Below are positions 6,258 to 32,931 of a DNA stretch of 36,206 nt, piece by piece (the first letter of the stretch is position 1; the number at the start of each line of letters is the position of its first letter). Origin of the DNA: Candidatus Levyibacteriota bacterium. GTDB lineage: Bacteria > Patescibacteriota > Microgenomatia > Levybacterales > UBA12049. The position numbers and the translations under genes are program-made. Where the stretch lies: positions 1-36,206 of the forward strand of contig JAHFKF010000002.1 in the NCBI GenBank assembly GCA_023245475.1. The letters are read 5' to 3'. The notes below the pieces were generated by a model. The model was not told where the DNA came from. It saw only the letters and a list, made by a program, of their open reading frames with translations, and ran no database searches.

Positions 6258-7748
6258 CTAAATATTCTTAAATCTATCTTTAATAAATTGCTTTTCCAAA
6301 GAAAGAATTAGCCATGCAGCTTTGGGGCCATGATCTTTGCCTATGAGAACTGTATAAATTGCCCCAAAGGTTTGCTTTCCTGTCAGTCCCATTTCTTTCC
6401 CTAATTCATAAATTTGTGTTTGAAACTCTTCAGCATCCCACTTCTTATCAAGTTCTGTAGCAATTTTTTGCAAGAGCTTTTTTTGTTCATTGGTTAATGC
6501 CTTTGCAGCTTCAGGAAGTTCTTTTTGAATTAAAAACTTTTCTGAATCAGATGCATATTTCTCGATGTATACTCTCGCATACGTTGCCCACTGCTCAAGT
6601 CCCTCTTCTGCAATTTTCTCCTGCATATTTGGCATTTGCACCCATTGGGCAAGAACAGAAAAGCGAACTGGAGGAACGTTCTTTATTTCTAGAATCTGTG
6701 ATAACTCAAAGGCACGAGCTAAATCTGCATCACCTTTTTCAAAGTACGCTTCTGCGGCTTTTTGATATTCATCATACAACTTAGGAATAATATCAGTTCC
6801 TTTTGGATTAAATTCAACAGCTCGATTTGGATCTGTCTTAATCATCAGAAAGCGAGCAACTTCTGGAGGTAATACTTCTAAAAGTTCTGCCCCTGTTAAA
6901 CCAAGCCCTTTTGAAGAAGACATCTTTTTACCATTCCATAAGAAAAATTCATATGCACGTGCCGCTGGTGGTTTTTGATCAAAGACAGCTTGGAGAATAT
7001 TGGCAGCAACTTCAAAAGAACTTCCTTTGGACATATGGTCTTTGCCTGACCATTCAATAGTCACTTTAAATGTATACCACTTTACTGACCATTCAGGTTT
7101 CCACGGCATTTTTGCATTCCCATCAAACGGAGAAATCTTTCCGGTTGTGCCACAACCCTGTGCCCATTTGACAAGATCTGGCAAACAGGTAAATGTTACT
7201 TCTTGTCCATCCCAATCAGTTACTTTAGTCGTTCCTAATTTACCACACGTTGGACAAATTACTTGCAGAGGAAACCAATCATCTTTCAAGGAGTTTTTAT
7301 ACATGTCTTCATAGACCTTGCGGACTTTTGTAACATTATCAAGCATCATTTTGATGCCTGTATTATAGATACCATTTTTGTAATTCTCTGATGCAAGATA
7401 AATCTTGGCGTTAATACCGAGAACCGCAAACATATCTCGCATTTTGGCACCGTAAAAGTCAGCAAACGTTCCATTGCCATCAGGAGATGGTGCCATAAAC
7501 GTTGGCACACCCATATATTGTTTATGCGAGACTTCAATAGAGGCAGGCAGGCCATCGATTGGATCAAAGTCATCAAAACCAAACGTATAGGTGACGTCTT
7601 TTTGTTGCTCTTTAAGAACACGAAAAAGCACATCATGAATAACAGGACCTTTAAGACCACCCATATGAGTAATGCCAGACGGAGTCCACGCATCGTTGAT
7701 CCACTCTTTTCCTCTTCTGTTTTTTAAAAATTCATCTGCCCAGAACAT
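6258..7748 (-). CDS. lysK: Lysine--tRNA ligase, class I (archaeal type)
   Basis: 496 aa. N-terminal FWADE..., TPSGITHMGGLKG (degenerate HIGH), CPTCGK zinc knuckle, GKDH, GKKMSSSKG (KMSKS-type loop), PPEVARFL and YDEY all match class I LysRS. Confidence 0.85.
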   Translation of the reverse strand: MFWADEFLKNRRGKEWINDAWTPSGITHMGGLKGPVIHDVLFRVLKEQQKDVTYTFGFDDFDPIDGLPASIEVSHKQYMGVPTFMAPSPDGNGTFADFYGAKMRDMFAVLGINAKIYLASENYKNGIYNTGIKMMLDNVTKVRKVYEDMYKNSLKDDWFPLQVICPTCGKLGTTKVTDWDGQEVTFTCLPDLVKWAQGCGTTGKISPFDGNAKMPWKPEWSVKWYTFKVTIEWSGKDHMSKGSSFEVAANILQAVFDQKPPAARAYEFFLWNGKKMSSSKGLGLTGAELLEVLPPEVARFLMIKTDPNRAVEFNPKGTDIIPKLYDEYQKAAEAYFEKGDADLARAFELSQILEIKNVPPVRFSVLAQWVQMPNMQEKIAEEGLEQWATYARVYIEKYASDSEKFLIQKELPEAAKALTNEQKKLLQKIATELDKKWDAEEFQTQIYELGKEMGLTGKQTFGAIYTVLIGKDHGPKAAWLILSLEKQFIKDRFKNI

Positions 7749-7763
7749 AGTTGTATTATAACA

Positions 7764-8729
7764 CTAACGAACAACCTCAACCTCTAACTCTAACTGAAAC
7801 CCAAATTCTTCTTGACACTTCTCTTGCACCTTATCAATAAGCTGTAACACATCGTTTGATGTGGCATGTCCGAGATTCACAATAAATAACGCATGCTTTT
7901 CTGAAATTTGAGCATCTCCGATTCTATGCCCCTTAAGCCCCCACCGATCAATCAAGGCAGCAACAGCAACTTTGCCATACCATTTTTTTTCTACATCTTC
8001 TTTAAAATCAGGATACACTGAAAGTACTTTTGCAATTTGCAAAGGCTCTCGCAAATTTTTAAAGACTGAACCACAATTAGGATACTCAAGCGGATGATTT
8101 CTTTGTCTGGACAAAATATGTTGTTCGTAGGTATTCTTTGCCTCTTGCAACTCTTGATCTGTCGCTTTTTTCAAAGCAAAACGTGCCGAAACAACAAGCA
8201 TCTGCTTATGTGTTTTAATTATGCTTCCTCTATAGACAAACTGTAGATCTTGATTAGAAAATTTCTGTACTGTAGGAATGTCTGTTGAATAATCTAAAAT
8301 TAGAGCATCCAGTAAATTATCCTTTAATTCACCACCATATGCGCCAACGTTCCCCCGAACGCCTGCCCCAACAGTCCCAGGAAGACCACCTGCCCATTCC
8401 AATCCAATAAGTCCCTGCTCAAGACTTTCCTTAACCAGATCCCCCAAGACTTCTCCGCCGAATGCTTCAATTATTCCTTCCCCATCAAGTGTTATTGTAC
8501 TTGTATCAGGTTTTACCAATTGAATCACCGCACCATCGAAATAGAGGTCAGTGAAAATAAGATTTGTACCTTGTCCACATACGAATAACTTTTTGATATG
8601 CTTTTCCTTGATAAACGCAATCGCTTGGACAATATCTTGTTTACTTTGGCACACAAGAAGATATTTTGTTTTGCCTCCAATATGGTACCAAAGTATGTTT
8701 GACAGAAGAGCATCTGCTTTGATTTGCAT
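7764..8729 (-). CDS. murB: UDP-N-acetylenolpyruvoylglucosamine reductase
   Basis: 321 aa. GQGTNLIF, LEWAGGLPGTVGAGVRGNVGAYGGE and PNCGSVFKN are MurB signatures. Confidence 0.9.
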   Translation of the reverse strand: MQIKADALLSNILWYHIGGKTKYLLVCQSKQDIVQAIAFIKEKHIKKLFVCGQGTNLIFTDLYFDGAVIQLVKPDTSTITLDGEGIIEAFGGEVLGDLVKESLEQGLIGLEWAGGLPGTVGAGVRGNVGAYGGELKDNLLDALILDYSTDIPTVQKFSNQDLQFVYRGSIIKTHKQMLVVSARFALKKATDQELQEAKNTYEQHILSRQRNHPLEYPNCGSVFKNLREPLQIAKVLSVYPDFKEDVEKKWYGKVAVAALIDRWGLKGHRIGDAQISEKHALFIVNLGHATSNDVLQLIDKVQEKCQEEFGFQLELEVEVVR

Positions 8730-8779
8730 AGACGGGTTAATTGTATCATGTTTCTATGCTAGAATAAAAAGTACTGCCT

Positions 8780-9598
8780 ATGAAAAAAGCATTTATTATT
8801 ATAATCTCTTCGTTATTACTCTCAATTGCTTTCTTTATCGTTTTTCGACTCCTGATTGAGGCTCGTACTCAAAAAGGAGCACTGCAAGTAACAGCCTCCC
8901 CTGAGAGTAAAGTTTATCTTAATGGAGACTTTATCGGCAAAACTCCGTTATGCAAATGTGATGAAACCAATATGATGCAAAGTGGTGAGTATACCATTCG
9001 ACTTGTTCCAACAGATCATACGTTAATGGAATTTCAAGAAAAGATTACTATCTCAGAAGGCGTGCTTACGGTTGTTGACCGAAAATTTGCCAAAGATTCA
9101 CTATCTGAAGGCTATGTCATCTCGTTAAGTAAACTTCCTGATGCAGAAAAGAATGAATTAGTGGTCGTTTCATTTCCTGAACATGCAAATGTACAATTAG
9201 ATTCTGCAGATATTGGAACAACCCCACGTTCTTTAAAAGATCCAACAGAATCCGACCACATTCTAAAAGTTGCAAAAAATGGTTATAAAGATAAAACAAT
9301 CCGTATTAGAACACCATTAGGATATAAATTAACCGTGGCAGTATATTTAAGTACCGTAAGTAACCTTGCTGCACCCATACAAGAAACCTCTGAGGATTCT
9401 GGCCCCACGGTTATGATTCTTGATACCCCAACTGGTTTCCTCCGAGTGAGACAAACAATTGGTGGTATTGAGGTTGGTCAAGTACAACCAGGTGAAACAT
9501 ATCCTCTCATTGATGAACAAGCAGGATGGTATTCAATTAAATTAAAGGATGGAGCAACGGGATGGATAAGTAGTGATTATGCTAAAAAGGAAGAATAA
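8780..9598 (+). CDS. N-terminally anchored envelope protein with two PEGA-like domains and a C-terminal SH3b-like domain
   Basis: 272 aa. TM/signal anchor; VTASPESKVYLNGDFIGKTP and VSFPEHANVQLDSADIGTTPRSL (PEGA-type); GWYSIKLKDGATGWISSDY (bacterial SH3). Confidence 0.75.
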   Translation: MKKAFIIIISSLLLSIAFFIVFRLLIEARTQKGALQVTASPESKVYLNGDFIGKTPLCKCDETNMMQSGEYTIRLVPTDHTLMEFQEKITISEGVLTVVDRKFAKDSLSEGYVISLSKLPDAEKNELVVVSFPEHANVQLDSADIGTTPRSLKDPTESDHILKVAKNGYKDKTIRIRTPLGYKLTVAVYLSTVSNLAAPIQETSEDSGPTVMILDTPTGFLRVRQTIGGIEVGQVQPGETYPLIDEQAGWYSIKLKDGATGWISSDYAKKEE

Positions 9599-9602
9599 AA
9601 AA

Positions 9603-10559
9603 TTACTGAATAAAGTAAATAATCGTAACAACAAGCACAGTATAAATAACAACTGTTAACAATAATGGACGATCAGATAAGAGTACTCGTTCAGGACTTT
9701 CTCCTTCATGGTTCTCATAAATTCGCTGCAAGTATCGCATTAAACCATAAACGACAGGTAAAATAGTTAACATAAGCCATTTTCTGTCTCCTAAGAAATC
9801 ATTAAAAATCATCATATCAAAACCCGTTGGCATACCTTTGGGATTGGCAACAAAGGTAAAAAGAGAATATGAAATAAATGTCGAGGTAGCAAAAAGGGAT
9901 AAATAGACATCAAGTAATTTTTCACTATAATGAGACAATGTTTTTCTGGTCGAAATAACTTGTCCTTTTGCAAGATGACCAAAAAGGGTTAATTCAGAAC
10001 GTCTTTTACCAATAGCTAAAAACAACGATAACGAAATAACTGTTAAAAAGAGCCAAGCTGATAAATGAAATCCAGTAACGACTTCTCCTGCAAAAACTCG
10101 TAACATATATCCACCAGCTAGTGTAAGAATATCGACAATTTCGATATGTTTCAAATAGGCTGAATAGGCAACATGCAAAATAAAATAAATAATCGTAATT
10201 GCAAAAAAGCTAGGGTTAATAAAATAACTTCCAATGAAAGAAGTCGCTGTTAAGATAATCACAATTGCTACAGCAACACCTCTCGATACATCACCACTTG
10301 CAAGTGGACGAAAGCGTTTGAAAGGATGCAGACGATCTTTCTTCGTATCAAATAAATCATTGATTACGTAGATTGCACTTGAAACTGCACAAAAAATTAA
10401 GAATCCATAGGAAGCATCAAGGAAGGACCAAAGATTAAAGAGTTCTCCACTAAAAAGAAGGGAAGCATAAATAGCAAAGTTTTTTATCCACTGACGTGGA
10501 CGAAGCAGACGAAAAATATCACGAAATACTTTTTTCATTCGTTTTCTTTGTAACCGCAT
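9603..10559 (-). CDS. UbiA-family prenyltransferase, decaprenyl-phosphate phosphoribosyltransferase-like
   Basis: 318 aa, about 8-9 TM. RPRQWIKNFAIYA and YVINDLFDTKKDRLHPFKRFRPLASG match the DPPR-synthase subgroup of UbiA enzymes. The start may be the MKK at 10541. It overlaps the upstream gene end. Confidence 0.8.
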   Translation of the reverse strand: MRLQRKRMKKVFRDIFRLLRPRQWIKNFAIYASLLFSGELFNLWSFLDASYGFLIFCAVSSAIYVINDLFDTKKDRLHPFKRFRPLASGDVSRGVAVAIVIILTATSFIGSYFINPSFFAITIIYFILHVAYSAYLKHIEIVDILTLAGGYMLRVFAGEVVTGFHLSAWLFLTVISLSLFLAIGKRRSELTLFGHLAKGQVISTRKTLSHYSEKLLDVYLSLFATSTFISYSLFTFVANPKGMPTGFDMMIFNDFLGDRKWLMLTILPVVYGLMRYLQRIYENHEGESPERVLLSDRPLLLTVVIYTVLVVTIIYFIQ

Positions 10560-11571
10560 GGAGGAAAAATAATCCTCCCCCCGTAATCACTCCAACCATA
10601 ATAATTGCGAATACTTTACTTTTACTCTCAAGGGAGAGAGCCAGTACCCCTAATATAGCAGAGATGCCCCAATAAAACAATGCAATTTGTCTTTGACTCC
10701 AACCCAATTGTAACAATAAATGATGTAAATGTTTTTTATCACCTTTAAATGGTGATTTTTTCTGAATAACTCTTCTCAAAATCGTAAAAACAAAATCTAC
10801 TAATGGAACTCCCATGACAAGAAGTGCAGTTGCTAACTTGGCACTGGAAAGCATTGATGTCACTCCAAGGAGTAAATAGAGAGCTGTGGCACCATACCCA
10901 GGAAATAGTTTTGCAGGATGAAAGTTGAAGAGTAAAAATCCTAAAGCACTTCCTGCAATGATAAATGCTAACTTTGCATCAATAAATTCTCCTGTCCCAC
11001 GAAGGCTAAGAATGCCAATAACAATTGCTGAGATAGCAACAATTCCAGGCATTTGCCCGTCTACTCCTTTACTCCAATTGAGCATATTCATAATCCAGAT
11101 GAGCCAAACTACAGAAATAATAAAGGAAATAATCACCGGAATATGCAAAATTCCTCCAAATGGGTTGGTAATAAATTGAATACTTACACCATTTGCAACC
11201 ACAATAATTGCAACAACAATGTTAAGAAAAAAACGAAGATAAGGAGAAACGTCTTTTGACTTTGCATTTAACCGATCATCAACTAAACCGACAATAAGCG
11301 CTAGCAGTGCTGCGGCAAAAACAGCAATTGTGGTTTGATTGATAGGAAGGAAAAAGATACCGACAAGAAAAACACTTAACAGCAATGGCAATCCTCCCCC
11401 ACGAGGAATTGGACGAGTATGCAATAAAGCAGGATGTTTATGTCGTTTAGGATCATCTATCAATCCTATTTTTTTACTAAGGACAATACATCCCGGCGTT
11501 ATAAGAGCAGTCACCAAAAATGTTAAAATAAATGGTATGATAACGAAATCGTTTGGAAATTGTATCATCAA
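10519..11571 (-). CDS. Glycosyltransferase family 4 polyprenyl-phosphate HexNAc-1-phosphate transferase (WecA/TagO/MraY superfamily)
   Basis: 350 aa polytopic protein. LIDDPKRHKHPALLHTRPIPRGGGL, VDDRL and NMLNWSKGVDG correspond to conserved MraY/WecA motifs. The N-terminal motif favours WecA-like over MraY. Confidence 0.8.
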   Translation of the reverse strand: MMIQFPNDFVIIPFILTFLVTALITPGCIVLSKKIGLIDDPKRHKHPALLHTRPIPRGGGLPLLLSVFLVGIFFLPINQTTIAVFAAALLALIVGLVDDRLNAKSKDVSPYLRFFLNIVVAIIVVANGVSIQFITNPFGGILHIPVIISFIISVVWLIWIMNMLNWSKGVDGQMPGIVAISAIVIGILSLRGTGEFIDAKLAFIIAGSALGFLLFNFHPAKLFPGYGATALYLLLGVTSMLSSAKLATALLVMGVPLVDFVFTILRRVIQKKSPFKGDKKHLHHLLLQLGWSQRQIALFYWGISAILGVLALSLESKSKVFAIIMVGVITGGGLFFLHAVTKKTNEKSIS

Positions 11572-11921
11572 AGTATGATATGCACCGTTTGCACTACAAA
11601 AATAAAAGAGAGTGCTACAATAAGCACCGTTGTCACACTCAGCAAGCGAGAAACTAATGGCGCTCTATCATAGACTTTATTCAAGAAAAAAAGATTTGCC
11701 AAAGAAAATATGCACGCAATCATCACTGGCAAAAAGATTTCTAGACGCGTTCCAAGCCGGGCATCTCCCCAGGGTAGTTGGTTAAATAATGGTAAAAACG
11801 GGGGCAATGAAAGATACACAATGCCCAAGTAAACAAGCTGTGTTACAAAAAGTATAACAGCACTTGTCATCCCCAATTTTATGATTTTATCTGATTTTAC
11901 GTACTTAAAAAGTTCTCTCAT
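11568..11921 (-). CDS. Small membrane protein (3-4 TM), unknown function
   Basis: 117 aa. Overlaps both neighbours (4 nt and 17 nt), so it is embedded in the glycosylation operon. No family recognised. Confidence 0.55.
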   Translation of the reverse strand: MRELFKYVKSDKIIKLGMTSAVILFVTQLVYLGIVYLSLPPFLPLFNQLPWGDARLGTRLEIFLPVMIACIFSLANLFFLNKVYDRAPLVSRLLSVTTVLIVALSFIFVVQTVHIIL

Positions 11922-13416
11922 AAATTGTTGCTCTTTCTAACGAAAATGTTTTCAAATATGAATCAAGTGAAAATGGAAAGCTCGGTGCTTCAGCAAGGAT
12001 GATAACATATTTGGGTCGTAATGTGTTAAGGGATTGTTGTGTTTCCCTAATTGCTTGATTACTTCCACGGATATGATAGGCAACTGTATATTTATTTGGC
12101 GGTAAGGTACCAGACAACGAGTAAATCTGCGCATTATCTCCCCACACAAAGACAACATCATTTTTATTGGTATGGAGTTTTATAAACGAAGCAACTTCGT
12201 AGTCACGAGGTGTTTTACCATCAAAAAAAGCTTGATATGAGGTAATATCTTTCTTCTCCGTTACAAAAAGAATAGCATTTTGATAATATAACACTTTTTT
12301 CATATAACCAGACAAGTGGAAACCTGCTACTAAGGTCGCAGTACTGATAAGAAAAAGGACTATTAGTAATAACTTTTCTCGTACTTGTTTCGTTATCAAA
12401 ATTAAACCAACTAATAAACACCAACTAGGCACCATTACCAACAAATAGTGTGTATAAGGGCGTTGCGAAAAGAAAGCATTAAAGACTGAAAATCCGAACC
12501 ATACTAAAATAAATAACGCAGGACGCGAAAGCGAATTACGTTTTAAGAAGAGTATAATCATAGAGATAAGAAGCAAAAGTATTTTGAGTATCAAAAAACC
12601 TTGAGGAATAATCAATTTATTGCCATACCCAACATAGCCAATATTGCCAAATAGTACTGCTTGTATAAACGAGTCAAATGTATTGGTTGCGAAAAAATAA
12701 AGACAGGTAACAATAACCGGAAGAAGAAATCCAGCAGTGAGAAAAAGAAACTGATGCAGCAATGGCCTTATCCAAACAAGTTGGGTATGAATACCTTTTG
12801 AGAAATGTTTTGGTAAACCAACTAATACCAAAAAGAAAAGCATAGTCGCAAAATCAAAAATCGCGACAATCTTAAATAAGAAGGCAACCCCGAGCAAGAC
12901 ACCTGCTATAAGAAGCGCCCAACGAGGAGTGAGTACTGTAAATTGTTTTTGTTTATCAACCAATCGATAAATCAGAAATCCAGCGGCAATAACAGGAAGT
13001 AAAATAAAATTTTCGGCATTGGCAATATTGCCCTCAATAAGTGGTGTAGCAAAGAGTAACGTAAATAACAAAGAAGTAAGGACAGCAACGGGTGCGTTTT
13101 TCAACAATCGCTTGGACAAAAAAAAGAAGATAATCAAGGATAAAAGTCCTACAATTAAAGAGGCACTTCGTACCCAAAACTGATCACCATCAAAAAGAGC
13201 ATACGTTATGTAAAGAAATGGTGGCTTATTATCCCAAGCCTCACTATATAACATTCGGCCACTGTGCATTGCTTGTCCCAGTACTTGATATATACCTTCA
13301 TCACCATACCAATTCGGCTCAATAAGGGAAGGCAAACGGAGAAAAAAGAACAGTACAATAATTCCTAAAAGAAACCAACATGTTTTACTTTTTTCAAGTT
13401 TGGTTAAGAGATTCAT
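11905..13416 (-). CDS. GT-C fold membrane glycosyltransferase (GT39/GT83, ArnT/PMT_2-like)
   Basis: 503 aa with more than 10 TM. The N-terminal LRLPSLIEPNWYGDEGIY...AWDNKPPFLY is the typical first-loop DE/KPP signature of polyprenyl-phosphate-sugar-dependent GT-C enzymes. Confidence 0.75.
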   Translation of the reverse strand: MNLLTKLEKSKTCWFLLGIIVLFFFLRLPSLIEPNWYGDEGIYQVLGQAMHSGRMLYSEAWDNKPPFLYITYALFDGDQFWVRSASLIVGLLSLIIFFFLSKRLLKNAPVAVLTSLLFTLLFATPLIEGNIANAENFILLPVIAAGFLIYRLVDKQKQFTVLTPRWALLIAGVLLGVAFLFKIVAIFDFATMLFFLVLVGLPKHFSKGIHTQLVWIRPLLHQFLFLTAGFLLPVIVTCLYFFATNTFDSFIQAVLFGNIGYVGYGNKLIIPQGFLILKILLLLISMIILFLKRNSLSRPALFILVWFGFSVFNAFFSQRPYTHYLLVMVPSWCLLVGLILITKQVREKLLLIVLFLISTATLVAGFHLSGYMKKVLYYQNAILFVTEKKDITSYQAFFDGKTPRDYEVASFIKLHTNKNDVVFVWGDNAQIYSLSGTLPPNKYTVAYHIRGSNQAIRETQQSLNTLRPKYVIILAEAPSFPFSLDSYLKTFSLERATIYERTF

Positions 13417-13422
13417 ACTGAG

Positions 13423-14916
13423 CTAAACCTTTTCTGTCACTTTATATTCTAACCGTTTCCCAAACATTAATTGTGTATGAGAAATGAGAGCAGGCAAAGC
13501 AGATAAGAAAAAGCCAATAATTGGCATCAGAAGAAATTCAAAAGGGAAAAGTAATTTTCTATAGAAAGGGAGATGTTGATTTGCTGGGCGATTTTTGTAA
13601 TCAAGATAGAGCATTGCAAGGAGTGCCAATAAACAAAGGTTAAGAATAAATCCAGCAAGCTGTGGCAAGCTATACCCAAGAGCAGTACGTGAATAAACAG
13701 GATTAATCACCGCCATGATGTTTGCTGCAACAGTAATCACAAACCAACTGACAGGCCACAAAATGTGACTTAATAAAACATGAAAAACTAAATTTGTCTT
13801 ACGCCAGAATGGCACGCAAGGAACAGTAAGCCACCACTTAATAAATAACGGATTATCAGAAACACCCCAGGACCAGCGTCTTTCCTGCGTATATTTATTT
13901 TTCAAACTACTTACATACCCTGGGGATTGAGCAGCATCCATTGAGGTTTTGAGAAAAATTGGCTCGACCCATAATTGCCCCTTCTTTTTAAAGAATGTCT
14001 TAAAAAAGATTCGATAATCCTCAGGAATAACATCAACATCCCAGAAATCTACCTCTTTTAACAGTCTCATTGAAAGTGTGTAGGTAGATTGCGTGATTAA
14101 TCGATCACGCTGTACGAGAAGTGAAATCTGATACAAACTACCAAAGAATGAAACCACGCGGGTTGCAGCAGGGACTTGCCAATTATTATTGTGGAAGACA
14201 ATTGCTGATTGCCAGAATTTATTGTAACGTTTTGGATCTTTCAGAAAGAGATATGTAAGATATGCAAAGTATTCTGTATGAAAAATCGAATCAGCATCAA
14301 CTGAGGAAATTGTCGCAAAATTTGCATCATACTTACCACTCTCAAAAAGAAGTCTATATGCTTGACGGCCACCATACGCTTCATTTGATGACTTACCTTT
14401 TACTTCTCCTTCAACATCAGGATGATATGTCGCAAAAATGCTCCCGAAGGTATCTTTGAATTCATTAATCAAAATTTTTGCCCGATCTTTGGCTTCTTCT
14501 TCACGCTCTTCCATAGCAAGAACTATGTGAAGATTTTTACGAGGGAATGACTGTTTACTCAAAGCATCAAGGGTAACTCGAATCTTCTCCGCTTTCTCTT
14601 TATAATTGGGGATAATTAATACATGTTGCACTTTATCGCAATCAACAAACGCTTGCGCTTTATCATACCAATCGATCTTCTCTGCTTTTTCAATGAGCTT
14701 ACTGGATTTAAAAGCATTGACAACAAGATTTGATGACTTATAAAACCAATACAAATCAAAAAAGAGGATAAAATAGGCAAGCACTGTAGGAATAAAAAAA
14801 GAGCCCCACAATGGGAACAGAATGACAGTCCAAGCAATAAATCCTGGTAAGATCTCCAAGGCACGCCGTGTCTTATTTGGATACCTCGTAAATAATCTGT
14901 CGAAGAAACTTGTCAT
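13423..14916 (-). CDS. Membrane-integrated processive family 2 glycosyltransferase (cellulose/chitin-synthase-like)
   Basis: 497 aa. VLIIPNYKE, SSVDADS (DxD) and QERRWSWG (QxxRW) motifs, flanked by N- and C-terminal TM helices. Confidence 0.8.
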   Translation of the reverse strand: MTSFFDRLFTRYPNKTRRALEILPGFIAWTVILFPLWGSFFIPTVLAYFILFFDLYWFYKSSNLVVNAFKSSKLIEKAEKIDWYDKAQAFVDCDKVQHVLIIPNYKEKAEKIRVTLDALSKQSFPRKNLHIVLAMEEREEEAKDRAKILINEFKDTFGSIFATYHPDVEGEVKGKSSNEAYGGRQAYRLLFESGKYDANFATISSVDADSIFHTEYFAYLTYLFLKDPKRYNKFWQSAIVFHNNNWQVPAATRVVSFFGSLYQISLLVQRDRLITQSTYTLSMRLLKEVDFWDVDVIPEDYRIFFKTFFKKKGQLWVEPIFLKTSMDAAQSPGYVSSLKNKYTQERRWSWGVSDNPLFIKWWLTVPCVPFWRKTNLVFHVLLSHILWPVSWFVITVAANIMAVINPVYSRTALGYSLPQLAGFILNLCLLALLAMLYLDYKNRPANQHLPFYRKLLFPFEFLLMPIIGFFLSALPALISHTQLMFGKRLEYKVTEKV

Positions 14917-15731
14917 AGGTTAAATATAGTATAGACATTTTTGTCAGTCTGTTCCACTATCTCTTCAAAGGAGACGTTTTTTATGCGGGCAATAAAACGT
15001 GCCGTAAGTATAGCAGATGCAGGCGTATTTCGCTTACCGCGATCAGGCATAGGCGTTAAATAAGGACTGTCTGTTTCAATAACCAAACGTTCAAGCGGTG
15101 TTTTCTCAATCAAATCAGTCAGAGGCAATGGCTCTCCAGGAGGCGTGCCTGCATAGGTTGTATTGCCATCAAAGCCTACTGAAAATCCAAGATCAAGTGC
15201 TTGGTAAAGACTTTCAAGACTCCCAGCCATACAATGAAACATACCCGGTACATCAAGGAGCAAATGTTTGTGTGCTTTCAGAATTGCTAAGGTAACTTTT
15301 CGAGCTTCATCGGTACGTGTATGAATCTGTAACGGCAATTTCTGCGAGTGAGCAAGCTCAAGTTGCTGGATAAAAATCGCTTCTTGTATAGCAGGGTTAA
15401 CAATACCGTTTGATTGATACGAATAGTAATCAATGCCGCATTCGCCAATACCAATCACTTTGGGATGCTTTGCTAATTTTTCTAGTTCAGCAATCCAGCC
15501 TTGCTCCTCAGGATGCATTGTGGTCACTTTGTCTGCGTGATGTGGATGGACGCCAATAACCGCATAAAGTCGTTCATACTTTTCAGCCAAATCAACAGCC
15601 CACTTGCTTGAAGATACTTGGGTACCCGTATTGATGATCGTATGCACACCAGCTTTTTTTGCTTCTGCAATTACTGCGTCGTAATCTTCTTCAAATGAAT
15701 GGAAATTGAGATGACAATGTGCGTCTATCAT
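14913..15731 (-). CDS. TatD-family metal-dependent hydrolase/DNase
   Basis: 272 aa. MIDAHCHLNF, GVHPHH, IGECGIDY, ETDSPYL. Confidence 0.9.
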   Translation of the reverse strand: MIDAHCHLNFHSFEEDYDAVIAEAKKAGVHTIINTGTQVSSSKWAVDLAEKYERLYAVIGVHPHHADKVTTMHPEEQGWIAELEKLAKHPKVIGIGECGIDYYSYQSNGIVNPAIQEAIFIQQLELAHSQKLPLQIHTRTDEARKVTLAILKAHKHLLLDVPGMFHCMAGSLESLYQALDLGFSVGFDGNTTYAGTPPGEPLPLTDLIEKTPLERLVIETDSPYLTPMPDRGKRNTPASAILTARFIARIKNVSFEEIVEQTDKNVYTIFNL

Positions 15732-15734
15732 AGA

Positions 15735-17186
15735 CTATGATAATCTGGGAAATAATGAAGAGCTACTAACAATGGTAGGACCTGCAAATTGCTTGGCAAT
15801 CTTTTCAGCAGTGTCAGGAAGAAATGGCCTGAGAAGAATTGCAACTTCCTGAATTTCATCAACACAGTGTGCTAGTACACTTTTGAGACGATCAGTATCT
15901 GTTTTTGCTAATTTCCAAGGCTCTTCTTCATTAATATATTTATCCAACTGTGCAATTTTTTGCCATACAAAACTTAATGCATCAGGAAATTTAAATGCTT
16001 CTAATGCTGCTACATAATCAGCATCATCCATAATGTGCCCGGCTTCCCCTCCTTCAGAACTCATATGTGTGTAGTTACTATTTTCACAAAGCTTTGCGAC
16101 ACGAGCAACGACGTTTCCTAATCCATTGGCAAGGTCGGCATTGTACGAAAGCTTTAATTTGTCTTCTGAGAAGTCTCCATCAGCAAATGGGGAAATATAA
16201 CGAAGACAATAATATCGTAGAGGATCAATACCATACGCCTTAATCATCTCAATTGGATCAATCACATTTCCCAAGGTCTTTGACATTTTTTGTCCGTTAA
16301 CCGTAATATACTCATGCACAAACAATTGTTTGGGCAGGGCTAACCCCGCAGAAAGAAGAAATGCTGGCCAGTAAACTGCGTGAAAGCGAATAATACCCTT
16401 ACCAATTACCTGAATATCTGCAGGCCACCATTTCTTATAATTCTTTTCATCCCATCCAAAACCGATACCACTCTGATAGATGTTAAGGGCATCAAACCAT
16501 ACGTACATTCGTTGCGTTGGGTCACCTGGGACAGGAATTCCCCAATTCTTGGCGCGAGTATTGCTTCGAGAGATACTAATGTCTTGTAAGCCACGTTTTA
16601 CGAAAGCAACCACCTCATTTTTACGAAACTCAGGTGTAATACGAAGCGTATTTTTCTCAAGAATATCTAAAATTTGCTCTTGGTATTTTGATAATTTAAA
16701 AAAGTAATTTTCTTCTTCTACTTCATCAAGTTTTTTCCCTGGATGTTCAAAGCATTCACCATTTGCATCAAGCTCTTCTTTGTCATAAAACATCTCACAA
16801 CCAACACAATATAGACCGGTATATTTCTTTTTATAAATATCACCATTCTTTGAGCATAGTTCCCACAATTTCTGTGAAGCCGGATAGTGATGGAGTTTAT
16901 CACTTCCTTTTTGCCAGATGTCATAGGTTGTCTGTAGTTGATTAACCAAATCCACAAACAAATTATTATTGGTATCAATAAACTCTTGAATTGGCTTGCC
17001 TGCTTTTTCCGCTGCTTGCACATTTTTAAGAGCATTTTCATCTCCACCACAAAGCTTGGTTACGTCTTCTCCCTTTAACCGGTGATATCTGGCAATAACA
17101 TCGGTTTGAATGAATTCCAGTGCGTGACCAATATGCGGTTTTGCATTAACATAAGGAATTGCAGTGGTGATATAAAACTTGGTCAT
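15735..17186 (-). CDS. metG: Methionine--tRNA ligase
   Basis: ITTAIPYVNAKPHIGHALEFIQTDV (HIGH), CxxC knuckle (YCVGCEMFY), KMSKTLGNVIDP. The ORF opens at 17231, but MTKFYITT (ATG 17186) fits homologues and removes the overlap with the upstream gene. Confidence 0.9.
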   Translation of the reverse strand: MTKFYITTAIPYVNAKPHIGHALEFIQTDVIARYHRLKGEDVTKLCGGDENALKNVQAAEKAGKPIQEFIDTNNNLFVDLVNQLQTTYDIWQKGSDKLHHYPASQKLWELCSKNGDIYKKKYTGLYCVGCEMFYDKEELDANGECFEHPGKKLDEVEEENYFFKLSKYQEQILDILEKNTLRITPEFRKNEVVAFVKRGLQDISISRSNTRAKNWGIPVPGDPTQRMYVWFDALNIYQSGIGFGWDEKNYKKWWPADIQVIGKGIIRFHAVYWPAFLLSAGLALPKQLFVHEYITVNGQKMSKTLGNVIDPIEMIKAYGIDPLRYYCLRYISPFADGDFSEDKLKLSYNADLANGLGNVVARVAKLCENSNYTHMSSEGGEAGHIMDDADYVAALEAFKFPDALSFVWQKIAQLDKYINEEEPWKLAKTDTDRLKSVLAHCVDEIQEVAILLRPFLPDTAEKIAKQFAGPTIVSSSSLFPRLS

Positions 17187-17202: not shown

Positions 17203-17511
17203 TCATCTCTTTCGATAAAAAAGCAATCCAAGCATGAGGAAAAGTGCCAAAAGAAGAATCAGAAAAAATGGATGCGTAAGATTATTTAAACGAAAAATAA
17301 GAATGGTGACAATGCAACTTCCCAAAAGGGCGCCATATTTTTTCTCTCGAAAAAAAACTGTTCCCAAAAAGAAACAGAAGAAAAAAAGAAGAAAGAAAAA
17401 AATTGGGATAAAATATGAAGATGGTGGAACAATAACAATAAGCGCCGCACTTGCGACAACGCATAAGATACTCGCAACAATAAAAATAAGTGGAGATTTT
17501 CTTCTACGCAT
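17203..17511 (-). CDS. Small Phe-rich polytopic membrane protein, unknown function
   Basis: About 102 aa from MRRRKSPLIF (ATG 17511), 4 nt downstream of the stop of the Cys-rich gene. Hydrophobic stretches include IPIFFFLLFFFCFFLGTVFF. The longer ORF start (17547) would overlap the upstream CDS. Confidence 0.5.
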   Translation of the reverse strand: MRRRKSPLIFIVASILCVVASAALIVIVPPSSYFIPIFFFLLFFFCFFLGTVFFREKKYGALLGSCIVTILIFRLNNLTHPFFLILLLALFLMLGLLFYRKR

Positions 17512-17515
17512 ATTA

Positions 17516-17986
17516 CTAGCGCACACAACAGAGTGTGCCTGCTGCACAGTCCTTTTGCCCCTGAGCTACTCCTCCCGTACCTCTACACGCCTGTCCGTTA
17601 CTACAGGCACCTCCGAGATCAGCACATGTCGCAGCCGTAGCTGGATTGGTCTTGCCTGCCGGAGTTGCCCCCGGAATTCGCAAGATATCTACACCAATTA
17701 ATTCGAGAAGAACAAACGAGAAGACAATAAACAACAGTCCGATGACAACTGCAACGAATTCTTCTCTCCCCTGCTGCAGAGCTTCAGGTTTTCCTTGTGA
17801 GGTCATCATTCGATATCCTGCTCGCATGAAGAGTAATAAGCCTATCCCTCCAACCATTGCAAACAAAACCCCAAACGTTGTTGTAATAAATCCTGCGGGA
17901 TCTGTCTTTATATCCCCAAATGCAGTAGCCACAGATGAGCATCCTCCACTAGCATACGCTACACATGGTGGAGAGGGGGGAAGAGG
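17516..17986 (-). repeat. Paralogous 3' gene segment (copy A) shared with 18776-19249
   Basis: The encoded ~155 aa (from PLPPSPPCV to the end) are roughly 85-90% identical by eye to copy B. The segment contains a 65-nt identical tract (17634-17698 = 18897-18961). Confidence 0.85.
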
Positions 17987-18727
17987 AAGAGGTTTAGGTG
18001 TCACGGCTCCCTTTTTTCGAGCAGTATCTAACGCATCTTTTGCAACACAGCTTGGAGCGGCTGCTGGATTGGTAAATCGATTGATATCACAAACAAGCCC
18101 CTGAGCACTACAACAACTTCCAGCCTGTCCAGGATTCTCAGAACTACAGGTTTCTCCTTTGCCAAGACATGTTGACGTGCATTTTTTGGTTTTACTATCA
18201 CAGGTAAGATTTTGTCCTTGGCAACAGTCAGTATTACTACTGCATGTTTCATTCGATTTTTTACAAGCAACTGAAGTACATGTCCCGGCTGCACCTCCTG
18301 GCGCGGTACTACATTTTAAGTTCTCATTACTACAACAACTAGTATTGCCACCACATACTCCATCAACGTGACTACAAGGAACTTCAGCACATTTGTTATT
18401 GATACATTTAAGATTCTTATTTTGATCACAATTACTATCTTGCGTACATACCGAACCTTTTTGACCTGTGTTAGAGGCAAGGATACAGGTATTTTGTGTC
18501 TGACTTCCTGGTGTGGAATCACAAATAAGGGTTTGAGTTGCATCTCCATCAGGCCTTCTACAACACTCATCGCCAGGACCTGCAATACACCTATCACCAA
18601 CTGCCCCACCTCTTCCGGGCTGCGGCTGTCCTCCGTCATTGCAAACACTCGCCGCATACGCTGATTGTGATGAGAAAAAAATAAACAGGAAAAAGATAGC
18701 TATAGCAGGAAAGAAAAACCGTCTCAT
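17516..18727 (-). CDS. Cysteine-rich secreted protein A: knottin-like repeat head + VirB2/TrbC-like (T4SS-pilin-type) two-helix membrane module + 6-Cys tail
   Basis: 403 aa from ATG 18727. The ORF-track start at 18769 is TTG; ATG 18727 sits in the same context as the paralog start. Signal peptide MRRFFFPAIAIFFLFIFFSSQSAYA. 36 Cys by my count. Helix-loop-helix GFITTTFGVLFAMVGGIGLLLFM-RAGYRMMTSQGKPEALQQGREE-FVAVVIGLLFIVFSFVLLELIGV. Confidence 0.8.
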   Translation of the reverse strand: MRRFFFPAIAIFFLFIFFSSQSAYAASVCNDGGQPQPGRGGAVGDRCIAGPGDECCRRPDGDATQTLICDSTPGSQTQNTCILASNTGQKGSVCTQDSNCDQNKNLKCINNKCAEVPCSHVDGVCGGNTSCCSNENLKCSTAPGGAAGTCTSVACKKSNETCSSNTDCCQGQNLTCDSKTKKCTSTCLGKGETCSSENPGQAGSCCSAQGLVCDINRFTNPAAAPSCVAKDALDTARKKGAVTPKPLPLPPSPPCVAYASGGCSSVATAFGDIKTDPAGFITTTFGVLFAMVGGIGLLLFMRAGYRMMTSQGKPEALQQGREEFVAVVIGLLFIVFSFVLLELIGVDILRIPGATPAGKTNPATAATCADLGGACSNGQACRGTGGVAQGQKDCAAGTLCCVR

Positions 18728-18762
18728 TGTTTCAGAATGACATGTTAAGAAAAAAAATGCAA
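18728..18762 (-). promoter_or_regulatory. 35-nt upstream element, copy 1 (identical to 20102-20136), abutting the start codon
   Basis: The minus-strand sequence TTGCATTTTTTTTCTTAACATGTCATTCTGAAACA precedes ATG in both paralogs. No Shine-Dalgarno. It can be read as TTGCAT-17 nt-CATTCT-6 nt-ATG (weak -10). Confidence 0.5.
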
Positions 18763-18775
18763 TCAACAAGAATTA

Positions 18776-19249
18776 TTACTGGGGCACACAACAAAGAGTA
18801 CCTGCCGCACAATCCTTCTGCCCCTGTGCTACTCCTCCAGTACCTCTACATGCCTGCCCGTTACTACAAGCACCTCCTGCATCTGCACATGTTGCTGCCG
18901 TAGCTGGATTGGTCTTGCCTGCCGGAGTTGCCCCCGGAATTCGCAAGATATCTACACCAATCACTTCGAGAAGCACAGAGGAAAAGATTATAAACAGTAA
19001 ACCTACTATTACTGCAATGACTTCTTCTCTCCCTTGTTGCAAGGCCTCTGGTTTCCCTTGTGAGGTCATAATTCGATAACTTGCCCGCATGAAGAGTAAT
19101 AAGCCAATCCCTCCAACCAGTGCAAATAAAACTCCGAACGTTGTGGTAATAAAACCAACGGAATCTGTCTTTAGATCTCCAAATGCAGTAGCAACAGAAG
19201 TGCATCCTCCATTAACAAAAGAGACACACGGTGGAGACGGGGGAAGAGG
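18776..19249 (-). repeat. Paralogous 3' gene segment (copy B) shared with 17516-17986
   Basis: See copy A. Identical 65-nt tract at 18897-18961. Confidence 0.85.
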
Positions 19250-20101
19250 AATAGCTTTCTTATCATCTACTGCTCTACAGGAAACTCCCTGAGCAAGTTT
19301 ACCATCAAAAACGTCATCACGACTAAAGGTAGCAGCCGCATCGTTGTAACAGGATTGATTATCTTCTTTACATGCAGCATTTACTGGATTTTCCCCAGGG
19401 ATAGTACAATGATAGCCATTCTTCCCTTTGCCTTTTACACCAGGAGTCGTACAGGTACAACTAATTGTAGGTTCACACGTACAGGGAAGTTTGCTCATTC
19501 CACAAACTTGCTTACCAGCAAGACAATTAAATCCACCTGGACAGACAGCGCCATTTGTTTTGCAAGTAGTAGGAACGCAAACATTATTTTTGCAGGTCAG
19601 ATCTGTCCCACAGTTGCCACTAGCAGGACAGGCATCACCACTTTTGGCAACACCATTGTCTTGTCTGCTACAAACACCACCATCTGAACATGTTCCTCTT
19701 CCTCCAGAACAAGGAGATGTTGTCACTTTACAAACAAACCCACCTGGACAATCTCTATGCCCTGTAAGATTTTTATCACATGTCTTTGGCACACAGACTG
19801 AATCAGCACCACACTTTAGCCCAGAATCACAACCCCCAGGATCAGCATTCGGTGAGGGACACGCTTGACCTGCAGCAATACCGGCCTTTACACACGTGCC
19901 AGGACAGAGACCTCTGGCACATCTAGCAGTCTCAATACTACACGTAAGGCCACTGTCGCAGTTGCCTTGGCCGCCTGTCGTCGGGGCGGTACAGTTTGCA
20001 CCATCGCCAACGGCAAAAGACGGATTAAGAGGAGCAGAAACAACAAGAAGAAGAACTCCAAAAAGAAAGCCAAACAATAAAAAGAACTGGAGTTTTTTCA
20101 T
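18776..20101 (-). CDS. Cysteine-rich secreted protein B: divergent 4-Cys-repeat head + the same VirB2/TrbC-like two-helix module + 6-Cys tail
   Basis: 441 aa. Signal peptide MKKLQFFLLFGFLFGVLLLVVSAPLNPSFA. 40 Cys by my count. Repeated C..C.(S/G)G(L/F).C...C units. The C-terminal ~155 aa are near-identical to protein A. Confidence 0.8.
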   Translation of the reverse strand: MKKLQFFLLFGFLFGVLLLVVSAPLNPSFAVGDGANCTAPTTGGQGNCDSGLTCSIETARCARGLCPGTCVKAGIAAGQACPSPNADPGGCDSGLKCGADSVCVPKTCDKNLTGHRDCPGGFVCKVTTSPCSGGRGTCSDGGVCSRQDNGVAKSGDACPASGNCGTDLTCKNNVCVPTTCKTNGAVCPGGFNCLAGKQVCGMSKLPCTCEPTISCTCTTPGVKGKGKNGYHCTIPGENPVNAACKEDNQSCYNDAAATFSRDDVFDGKLAQGVSCRAVDDKKAIPLPPSPPCVSFVNGGCTSVATAFGDLKTDSVGFITTTFGVLFALVGGIGLLLFMRASYRIMTSQGKPEALQQGREEVIAVIVGLLFIIFSSVLLEVIGVDILRIPGATPAGKTNPATAATCADAGGACSNGQACRGTGGVAQGQKDCAAGTLCCVPQ

Positions 20102-20136
20102 TGTTTCAGAATGACATGTTAAGAAAAAAAATGCAA
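20102..20136 (-). promoter_or_regulatory. 35-nt upstream element, copy 2 (identical to 18728-18762)
   Basis: Same 35 nt directly 5' of the ATG of protein B. Only about 3 nt separate it from the rmuC stop codon. Confidence 0.5.
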
Positions 20137-32280: not shown

Positions 32281-32931
32281 TCAATAGCGGGTACTTGCAG
32301 GCTTTGTGCTGCCAGTAGTAACGACTGGTGCTGTTTGCGTTGTTGATCCTGCTGTGCTAAAGGTAACCAAAGTTCCCATTGCTTCTTTAAGTACTGATGT
32401 AGCAACGCCTCGTGCTGTGACAAGAGATGTTGGTAAGAGTGCTAGCTGCATCTGCTGACCAACTGGTGCTGTCTTTGCTGTAAAGGTAAGTGTTGCGACA
32501 GCCCCGTTTGCTGTGATGTGCTGACTACTTGGTGAGATACCAACAGCATAAGTATATCGACCTGTTTGTGGATTATTTTTGTCAATAAGTACTACTGGGT
32601 TTGAAAAGGATGAACTTGGCGTTATTTTAAGATTGGTAATTAAGGTTGGGTCGTAACCGATTTCTAACTGGACAGCCGTTACTGGATTGTCCGATGGAGC
32701 AAGCATCACGCTGACACTACCTTGCTGTCCTGAGACAACAGTAACTGGATTGGGAGAAAGACTTAAGACAGAGTGAGCAATTGAAGCAGGCGCTGTTTGA
32801 GCAGTTTGTTCTGGCTGCTGAGTTGCACTCTTTGTACCCGTTTTAAGCGCAATAACAAAGAGGACTACGGTTACCAATACCAGACAAACTATAAGGGCAA
32901 GTGTTTTCTTCGGCATATCTGTATTTATCAT
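32281..32931 (-). CDS. N-terminally anchored surface protein with a cohesin-like beta-sandwich domain
   Basis: 216 aa. TM anchor (LALIVCLVLVTVVLFVIAL), a Gln/Thr/Ala-rich linker, then VSVMLAPSDNPVTAVQLEIGYDPTLITNLKI...GAVATLTFTAK, resembling cohesin domains. Confidence 0.5.
   Translation of the reverse strand: MINTDMPKKTLALIVCLVLVTVVLFVIALKTGTKSATQQPEQTAQTAPASIAHSVLSLSPNPVTVVSGQQGSVSVMLAPSDNPVTAVQLEIGYDPTLITNLKITPSSSFSNPVVLIDKNNPQTGRYTYAVGISPSSQHITANGAVATLTFTAKTAPVGQQMQLALLPTSLVTARGVATSVLKEAMGTLVTFSTAGSTTQTAPVVTTGSTKPASTRY

Follow-up and report, generated by a model that had tools for sequence, protein, structure and literature searches.

Large-headed pilins of the type IV secretion type in a satellite locus of a Candidatus Levyibacteriota genome

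What does a pilin do when it carries a large, cysteine-rich head? The question is raised by two adjacent genes on the minus strand of a 36,206-nt stretch of DNA from Candidatus Levyibacteriota (contig JAHFKF010000002.1; hereafter the window, for which gene lists also covered about 10 kb beyond each end). The two genes, A and B, encode proteins of 403 and 441 amino acids (aa) that share a membrane hairpin of the type seen in pilins of the type IV secretion system (T4SS) of Candidate Phyla Radiation (CPR) bacteria. An earlier, sequence-only reading of this DNA knew of no described family with such a fusion and took the pair for a candidate undescribed surface system. We find instead that the fusion is widespread, with 265 relatives, and that it is tied to T4SS arrays in most loci. 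A and B are divergent members of a known pilin family; their relatives fall into two classes of locus, one of them with a dedicated partner gene, and join a constant pilin module to variable heads. The pilin family and its arrays were known; new here are pilins of the T4SS type that bear both heads and tails and are encoded in a satellite locus. We consider A and B plausible host-attachment proteins, and we lean towards a role as adhesin subunits that would co-assemble with the T4SS pilins of the genome.

Two large proteins on one pilin-type hairpin

Both genes encode the same succession of parts, which lie in the window as follows.

18776..20101, minus strand: gene B, a headed pilin of 441 aa (open reading frame, ORF, with PF18895 as best match at 20.5 bits), made up of signal peptide (aa 1-30), head (31-284), pilin module (285-390) and Cys tail (391-441)
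19250..20011, minus strand: head of B, aa 31-284, with 32 Cys
18932..19249, minus strand: pilin module of B, aa 285-390, with linker PLPPSPP, C..C loop and two helices
18779..18931, minus strand: tail of B, aa 391-441, with 6 Cys spaced C-x6-C-x5-C-x12-C-x5-CC
17516..18727, minus strand: gene A, a headed pilin of 403 aa counted from the ATG, made up of signal peptide (aa 1-25), head (26-247), module (248-353) and tail (354-403)
17987..18652, minus strand: head of A, aa 26-247, with 28 Cys
17669..17986, minus strand: pilin module of A, aa 248-353 (PF18895 at 24.6 bits, E 2.6e-5, for the module alone)
17519..17668, minus strand: tail of A, aa 354-403, with 6 Cys; 47 of 48 aligned residues are the same as in the tail of B

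All the motifs on which the sequence-only reading was built (signal peptide, Cys-rich head, linker, hairpin and six-Cys tail) were found in both ORFs. Signal peptide cleavage is predicted at AYA/A in A and SFA/V in B, with small residues at positions -3/-1. The heads measure 222 aa with 12.7% Cys in A and 254 aa with 12.5% Cys in B, and lead in both proteins through the PLPPSPP linker and a CV..GGC..VATAFGD.KTD segment into two long hydrophobic helices, connected by RA.YR.MTSQGKPEALQQGREE. In B, the loop between helix 1 and helix 2 is SYRIMTSQGKPEALQQGREE and the module ends in IGVDILRIPG. The tails, of 50 aa in A and 51 aa in B, share the Cys spacing given above. Counted over head, module and tail, there are 28+2+6 Cys in A and 32+2+6 in B, all of them even numbers.

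The two proteins are 87% identical over their last 148 aa, and their heads show no significant similarity. The shared DNA is 85% identical, with 41 synonymous against 21 non-synonymous codon differences; judged by these codons, the similarity between A and B is that of an older duplication under purifying selection, not of a recent copy. Recent duplication or gene conversion as its sole cause was rejected, since the modules differ at 15% of bases, mostly synonymous. The biased composition of the genes, and the several long opposite-strand ORFs that overlap them, could also suggest a chance pair of ORFs, an assembly artefact or decaying pseudogenes. This suspicion is effectively refuted by comparisons between sequences: identical A and B proteins are called in two independent assemblies, the module bears the mark of purifying selection in the codon counts just given, and there are dozens of homologues with a common architecture and synteny. 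Only 48 nt separate the two genes, after the stop of B.

To which family does the hairpin belong? PF18895 (T4SS_pilin) is the best Pfam match of A and of B, whether they are searched at full length or as isolated modules (E-values from 2.6e-5 to 5e-4). A homology search with B returned 88 proteins, most of which bear a precomputed PF18895 match. We aligned 33 modules, and because all 33 match the model (best E 6.4e-12), transitive homology supports the membership of A and B in the PF18895 family as divergent members, in line with the CPR T4SS_pilin type proposed for the hairpin from the sequence alone. A hidden Markov model (HMM) of the module also picks up the small pilins of T4SS arrays, with E < 1e-5, and the TrbC/VirB2 family (PF04956) is weakly matched by 5 of the 33 aligned relatives (E below 0.01, best 7.8e-4). 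The sequences of A and B show the architecture of PF18895, in which a signal peptide precedes two hydrophobic helices with a short polar loop between them. AlphaFold2 (AF2) folds the module of A into a small beta-sheet, formed from the C..C segment, followed by two helices at residues 277-309 (33 residues) and 314-348 (about 31-35 residues), at a predicted local distance difference test (pLDDT) score of about 80-91.

With 403 and 441 aa, A and B exceed the roughly 100-150 aa usually described for PF18895. The sequence-only reading had taken this length, and the lack of a head, as the norm for T4SS_pilin proteins, which is wrong for the clade at hand: all 86 other homologues are 248-654 aa long, and each starts with a signal peptide, continues in a variable head and carries the module at its C-terminal end or close to it.

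Constant modules, variable heads and two classes of locus

A scan of one genome per GTDB species gave 265 relatives, and 79 loci were kept and mined with the module HMM and with probe proteins. Where their records are informative, these loci come mostly from Levyibacteriota or generic Patescibacteria. Many GTDB records with the locus bear the name of uncultured Gammaproteobacteria, Lysobacterales, Acidiferrales, Actinomycetota or Methylomirabilota (L003, L004, L007, L012, L022, L044 and others); such non-CPR names have the look of placeholders, of mistaken taxonomy or of contamination in the bins. By these sequence matches, headed pilins are common in Levybacteria-type genomes and as yet undescribed.

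The proteins of this subfamily, overall 200-880 aa long, are recognised by the end of their module. IGVDILRIPG is nearly invariant and forms the exact C-terminus of most members, only a minority of which have a further tail. The motif occupies aa 344-353 of A and aa 381-390 of B, and a tail follows in both. Helix 2 together with the RIPG motif is almost invariant across the family, in both of the locus classes described below. The small pilins of T4SS arrays do not have the RIPG ending, so that the RIPG-type module specifically marks headed pilins.

Class I comprises roughly 55-60 of the 79 loci. Here the headed pilin is the first gene of a small-pilin array, with the order Trans_reg_C-like gene, headed pilin, usually three small pilins (of about 105, 135 and 105 aa, with 0, 2 and 4 Cys), and then PrgI/VirB3-like, TraC-like and VirB4 genes, which are visible where the flank is long enough. 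In L081 the cluster (8674-16662) adjoins dnaN/dnaA. This organisation matches the T4SS locus with a VirB2 array already described in Patescibacteria, where VirB4 is present in 2,417 of 3,035 assemblies (Quinonero-Coronel et al., 2025; PMC12102498); that survey lists such matches as VirB2, in a Table S3 without lengths. The T4SS locus is essential in Southlakia epibionticum (Wang et al., 2023; PMC10633639). In the small array pilins, pairs of Cys flank the hairpin, ahead of helix 1 and behind helix 2, and some of these pilins have Cys-rich C-terminal extensions, meaning that decoration of both outward termini recurs in the family. As further observations on class I, the Trans_reg_C-like gene encodes 429 aa (in L081 and about 55 other loci, for instance L018, L025 and L074), the PrgI-like gene bears a CarboxypepD_reg-like C-terminal part, and the second small pilin lacks a classical signal peptide.

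The window and 18 further loci make up class II, in which one or two headed pilins are followed by a gene for a small protein with three transmembrane segments (3-TM) and then by metG. One of these loci, L082, is syntenic with the window over metG, TatD, a 497-aa protein, PMT, a 117-aa protein, GT4, UbiA and a PEGA/SH3 protein. Class II modules are a lineage of their own: for 68 of 68 modules the nearest neighbour belongs to the same class, and module identity is 61% within class II vs 50% between the classes. The median number of Cys is 24 in class II and 11.5 in class I, and 9 of 18 class II proteins are tailed compared to 5 of 50 in class I. In many class II loci, a lone gene for a pilin module of about 100 aa also lies a few kb away on the other strand; in L005-L009, L023 and L030 it is found some 6 kb upstream from the headed pilin. 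In L082 (1-4032, minus strand) this gene adjoins one for a 1674-aa protein without Pfam domain; the window has no counterpart of it. Our literature searches found the pilin arrays, and no account of large-headed PF18895 proteins, of the class II locus or of its partner gene.

The remaining class II features of the window are the following.

17203..17511, minus strand: partner gene, encoding a 102-aa 3-TM protein and starting 4 nt past the stop of A
20102..20136, minus strand: promoter-like element of B, with TTGCAT at 20136-20131, a spacer ending in TGT, CATTCT at 20113-20108, 6 nt, and the ATG at 20101
18728..18762, minus strand: promoter-like element of A, with TTGCAT at 18762-18757, CATTCT at 18739-18734, and the ATG at 18727
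15735..17186, minus strand: metG, the class II marker downstream, followed by TatD, the 497-aa protein, PMT, the 117-aa protein, GT4 and UbiA

A homologue of the partner gene directly follows the headed pilin in 18 of 18 class II loci. The protein is basic at its N-terminus, contains three hydrophobic segments (...FRLNNLTHPFF...LFLMLGLLFYRKR) and has a conserved end, LELL.SYRK. It has no Pfam match, and only 14 relatives were found, all unannotated. Automatic gene calls miss the gene and place a 155-aa plus-strand ORF (17234..17701) in its stead; we rejected this ORF as spurious, because it overlaps the minus-strand 3-TM ORF, whose conservation extends to 18 loci.

Upstream of A and B there is an identical 39-nt repeat (20098-20136 and 18724-18762) that reaches into the start codon. 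At least 15 of 19 class II genes have the same layout, TTGCAt, a spacer ending in TGn, (C/A)AT(G/T)CT, about 6 nt, and ATG or GTG, and in other genomes the genes with this element mostly start with GTG. Since the layout is conserved across class II genes, we infer that the element is a promoter for a leaderless or near-leaderless mRNA. A generic sigma-70 consensus scan does not call it; the terminator-like sites from that scan fall inside coding sequence and were disregarded. The ORF list offers an alternative TTG start for A at 18769, which falls within the conserved promoter element.

The sequence-only reading had proposed a survey of relatives for the same base with other heads, and this is what was found: a constant module with varied heads. 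It is seen in three independent tandem pairs, whose modules are 83% (window), 98% (L007) and 100% (L021) identical and whose heads are unrelated. As an example, head A is closest to that of P0089 (50% identity), whereas module A is closest to that of B (83% vs 54%), and hence the histories of head and module differ. The sequences would agree with either of two explanations: heads have been exchanged, or modules (and in the window also promoters) have been homogenised within the genome. The near-identical modules of L007 and L021 show, at the level of sequence, that homogenisation occurs elsewhere. Because helix 2 and RIPG are near-invariant and modules are alike within pairs, the pattern speaks for contact of the module with a partner that is conserved and genome-specific, and against a passive anchor. 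As far as the alignments tell, the conservation of helix 2 and RIPG exceeds the need of a simple membrane anchor.

The heads themselves are built from Cys-rich repeats of more than one kind. Head A has about five units of the form C-x6-C-x5/6-CC-x6-C-x6..13-C, a knottin-like spacing. In the AF2 model of full-length A, residues 70-240 (pLDDT 70-87) contain four repeated small beta-hairpin units, and a Foldseek search with this head placed the double-knot toxin DkTx first, with huwentoxin, hainantoxin, hanatoxin and Hm1a also matched (1.0-2.2 Å over 25-36 columns), as well as colipase, Dickkopf and Draxin. As the Cys spacing, the AF2 repeats and this coherent set of Foldseek matches agree, head A likely consists of tandem knottin-like modules. 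A word-indexed search with head A returned nothing, not even its parent protein P0002, which is in that database; this is a limitation of the tool, and exhaustive HMMER was used. Among 1.84 billion representative proteins, it found three true relatives of the head (P0089-P0091), which are headed pilins without tail; a fourth match, a weak one, is to a secreted protein that is unrelated and has tandem repeats in knottin spacing. Head B has a different repeat, C-x5..10-C-x5-C-x5/6-C-x4-C, and no Pfam domain. Its partial relatives P0007, P0009 and P0014 span 72-89% of B, with 29-37% identity in the heads and 54-60% in the modules.

Tails vary as well. Some relatives carry 4-Cys modules and some additionally PG_binding_1 domains, while the tail of P0003 has the same six-Cys pattern as those of the window. 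These latter have no Pfam match, and their AF2 pLDDT is about 43-67. Their spacing is similar, though not identical, to C-x6-C-x4-C-x9-C-x6-CC, the beta-defensin pattern.

A proposed role and its rivals

The signal peptide, the loop rich in K+R (2.64, against 0.85 for either outer flank) and the even numbers of Cys fit a topology with head and tail outside, and so both Cys-rich parts would lie outside the cell, where the sequence-only reading had placed them. Following export by Sec and cleavage of the signal peptide, the hairpin would be inserted with its short K/R-rich loop in the cytoplasm, leaving the head, the Pro-rich linker and the C-terminal tail on the exterior. There, the even-numbered Cys of head and tail would form disulfides, and the linker would span the wall. 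The conserved module would dock to, or co-assemble with, other T4SS pilins and the machinery, perhaps with the help of the 3-TM partner, and the exchangeable heads (tandem knottin-like in A, another Cys repeat in B) would bind host-cell surfaces. The role would probably be that of a minor or tip subunit and not of a bulk subunit, because a 25-kDa head on each subunit would crowd a VirB2-type lattice. We give a probability of about 0.55 to this reading, in which A and B would be paralogous headed pilins serving as co-assembling minor or tip adhesin subunits for the T4SS pilins of their genome.

Several results weigh against it. No T4SS gene (VirB4, VirB3/PrgI or other array pilins) lies within about 56 kb around A and B; the sequence-only reading had noted none in the window, and extending the view to about 10 kb past either end revealed none. 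Of the two Pfam families that this reading had named, PF18895 is the best match but stays below its gathering cutoff of 26.6 bits (21.5 for A and 20.5 for B at full length; 24.6 and 23.8 for the isolated modules), and PF04956 (TrbC/VirB2) is not significant for the window proteins, with E = 1.4 for A and no match for B. A PDB profile search with the module gave no pilin, only a chance match to NADH dehydrogenase subunit 5, and Foldseek of module and tail returned generic helical hairpins only (E of at least 2.8). A two-helix hairpin is too simple for a fold search to discriminate, and Foldseek for this reason neither confirms nor refutes a likeness to VirB2. Searched against NCBIfam, the proteins gave only a weak and uninformative match to a Mycoplasma ICE pilin-like family (E = 0.008). 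The relation to VirB2/TrbC is therefore a weak one, suggested by weak profile matches and by the genomic association of the family, not by structure. In the structural check that had been proposed from the sequence, head A came out as coherently knottin-like, with every Foldseek match non-significant (best E = 0.097), and the tail was modelled at low confidence. No disulfide-forming enzyme was seen in the window. Bulk polymerisation of A and B is doubtful too, as a VirB2-type filament would be crowded if all its subunits bore heads of about 220-250 aa.

The distance of the locus from any T4SS genes also speaks for a different role, in which A and B would be plain membrane-anchored surface proteins, independent of a T4SS and never part of a filament, with the pilin-derived hairpin as a two-pass anchor. 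The 3-TM partner would possibly hold the protein, and the Cys-rich heads would be adhesins or receptors reaching through the wall on the Pro-rich linker. That class II has its own conserved partner gene and promoter and forms a distinct lineage, that the heads are big for the lattice of a helical pilus, and that Foldseek gave no specific VirB2 match all speak for such an anchor. Simple anchors, however, usually drift freely, and here helix 2 and RIPG are nearly invariant in both classes and modules are homogenised within genomes, suggesting a specific protein interface, common to the array-borne headed pilins inside T4SS operons. We regard this role as possible, if doubtful. The likeness of head A to inhibitor-cystine-knot toxins in Cys spacing and predicted fold raises another alternative, namely a locus for the display and release of toxins or antimicrobials, bacteriocin-like, in which head and tail would be bioactive peptides and the 3-TM protein an immunity or export helper. 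A tail spacing near the beta-defensin pattern, and a small multi-pass membrane protein directly after the structural genes, would be in keeping with this. An immunity protein should nonetheless co-vary with its toxin, and the partner is highly conserved while heads and tails differ fully between loci; the relatives include proteins with PG_binding_1, tailless ones and ones poor in Cys; neither a processing site nor a gene for a protease is evident; and the knottin matches are non-significant and the tail model of low confidence. We hold a toxin locus to be very improbable. As for the 3-TM protein as an immunity protein, it was rejected as unlikely, the gene being conserved while heads and tails vary.

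Going further, class II could be a pilin-scaffolded exchange system for host-recognition modules, placed along the essential T4SS pilus or at its tip. In it, gene conversion would keep the module uniform within each genome, a dedicated 3-TM partner would serve it, and the disulfide-rich heads and tails, knottin-like and others, would be swappable; such a system would set host range in uncultivated Microgenomatia. We put this forward as a speculation, and an unlikely one as it stands. In a bolder version, hairpin and partner may form a filament or display device without a T4SS.

Surroundings of the locus and comparison with known systems

Beyond metG and TatD, the window holds a conserved glycosylation-like envelope block (9603-14916, minus strand), made up of a UbiA-family prenyltransferase, Glycos_transf_4, the 117-aa protein, a PMT-family glycosyltransferase and the 497-aa protein, the last with a weak GT2 match. 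It is followed by the PEGA/SH3_3 protein (8780-9598, plus strand), as in the syntenic L082. Elsewhere in the window, a 216-aa protein with a Cohesin domain (32281-32931, minus strand; E 1.2e-8) is a candidate surface-interaction protein, and the lysyl-tRNA synthetase (6258-7748, minus strand) is of the class I type (PF01921), which is common in archaea and some CPR bacteria.

Host recognition by CPR/Patescibacteria is largely unknown outside a few cultivated Saccharibacteria, and there the T4SS and its pilin array are essential, with their function unexplained. Headed pilins are concrete, testable candidates for the host-binding end of the T4SS machine, and host ranges might diversify through the exchange of heads on a module that stays constant.

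Among known systems, the VirB2/TrbC pilins (PF04956) and F-type TraA are, as predicted for A and B, Sec-dependent, with two hydrophobic helices, a short basic loop and termini that face outward. In TrbC, a C-terminal extension past helix 2 is removed in maturation. The similarity in sequence is marginal (E is 1.4 for A and falls below 0.01 in 5 of 33 relatives) and comes with no structural match, and the host of A and B is a monoderm. We know of no large head in the VirB2/TrbC and TraA families. With tandem knottins such as DkTx, and the colipase/Dickkopf fold, head A is compared on the spacing of its units and on the superposition of its AF2 units on spider knottins, at matches that are not significant; A differs in being bacterial and in having its units fused to a pilin hairpin, and its knottin-like fold is a predicted one. 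VirB5-type tip proteins and large-headed type IV minor pilins offer a functional analogy, that of one large variable subunit added to small conserved pilins, which would take the tip position and bind targets. There is no relation in sequence or fold, and in A and B the candidate adhesin itself would sit on a hairpin of the major-pilin type.

The VirB2-like arrays of Patescibacteria (PF18895; PMC10633639, PMC12102498) have the same hairpin, a loop of the type GY..MTSQG(N/K)PE, and tandem divergent paralogues, and the class I relatives of A and B open such arrays beside PrgI/VirB3, TraC-like and VirB4 genes. The published pilins are treated as small, whereas A and B have heads of about 220-250 aa and 50-aa tails; their modules end in RIPG, unlike those of the small pilins; and they lie far from T4SS genes, paired with a previously unreported 3-TM protein. 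Surveys that score every PF18895 match as a small VirB2 pilin pool at least two kinds of protein.

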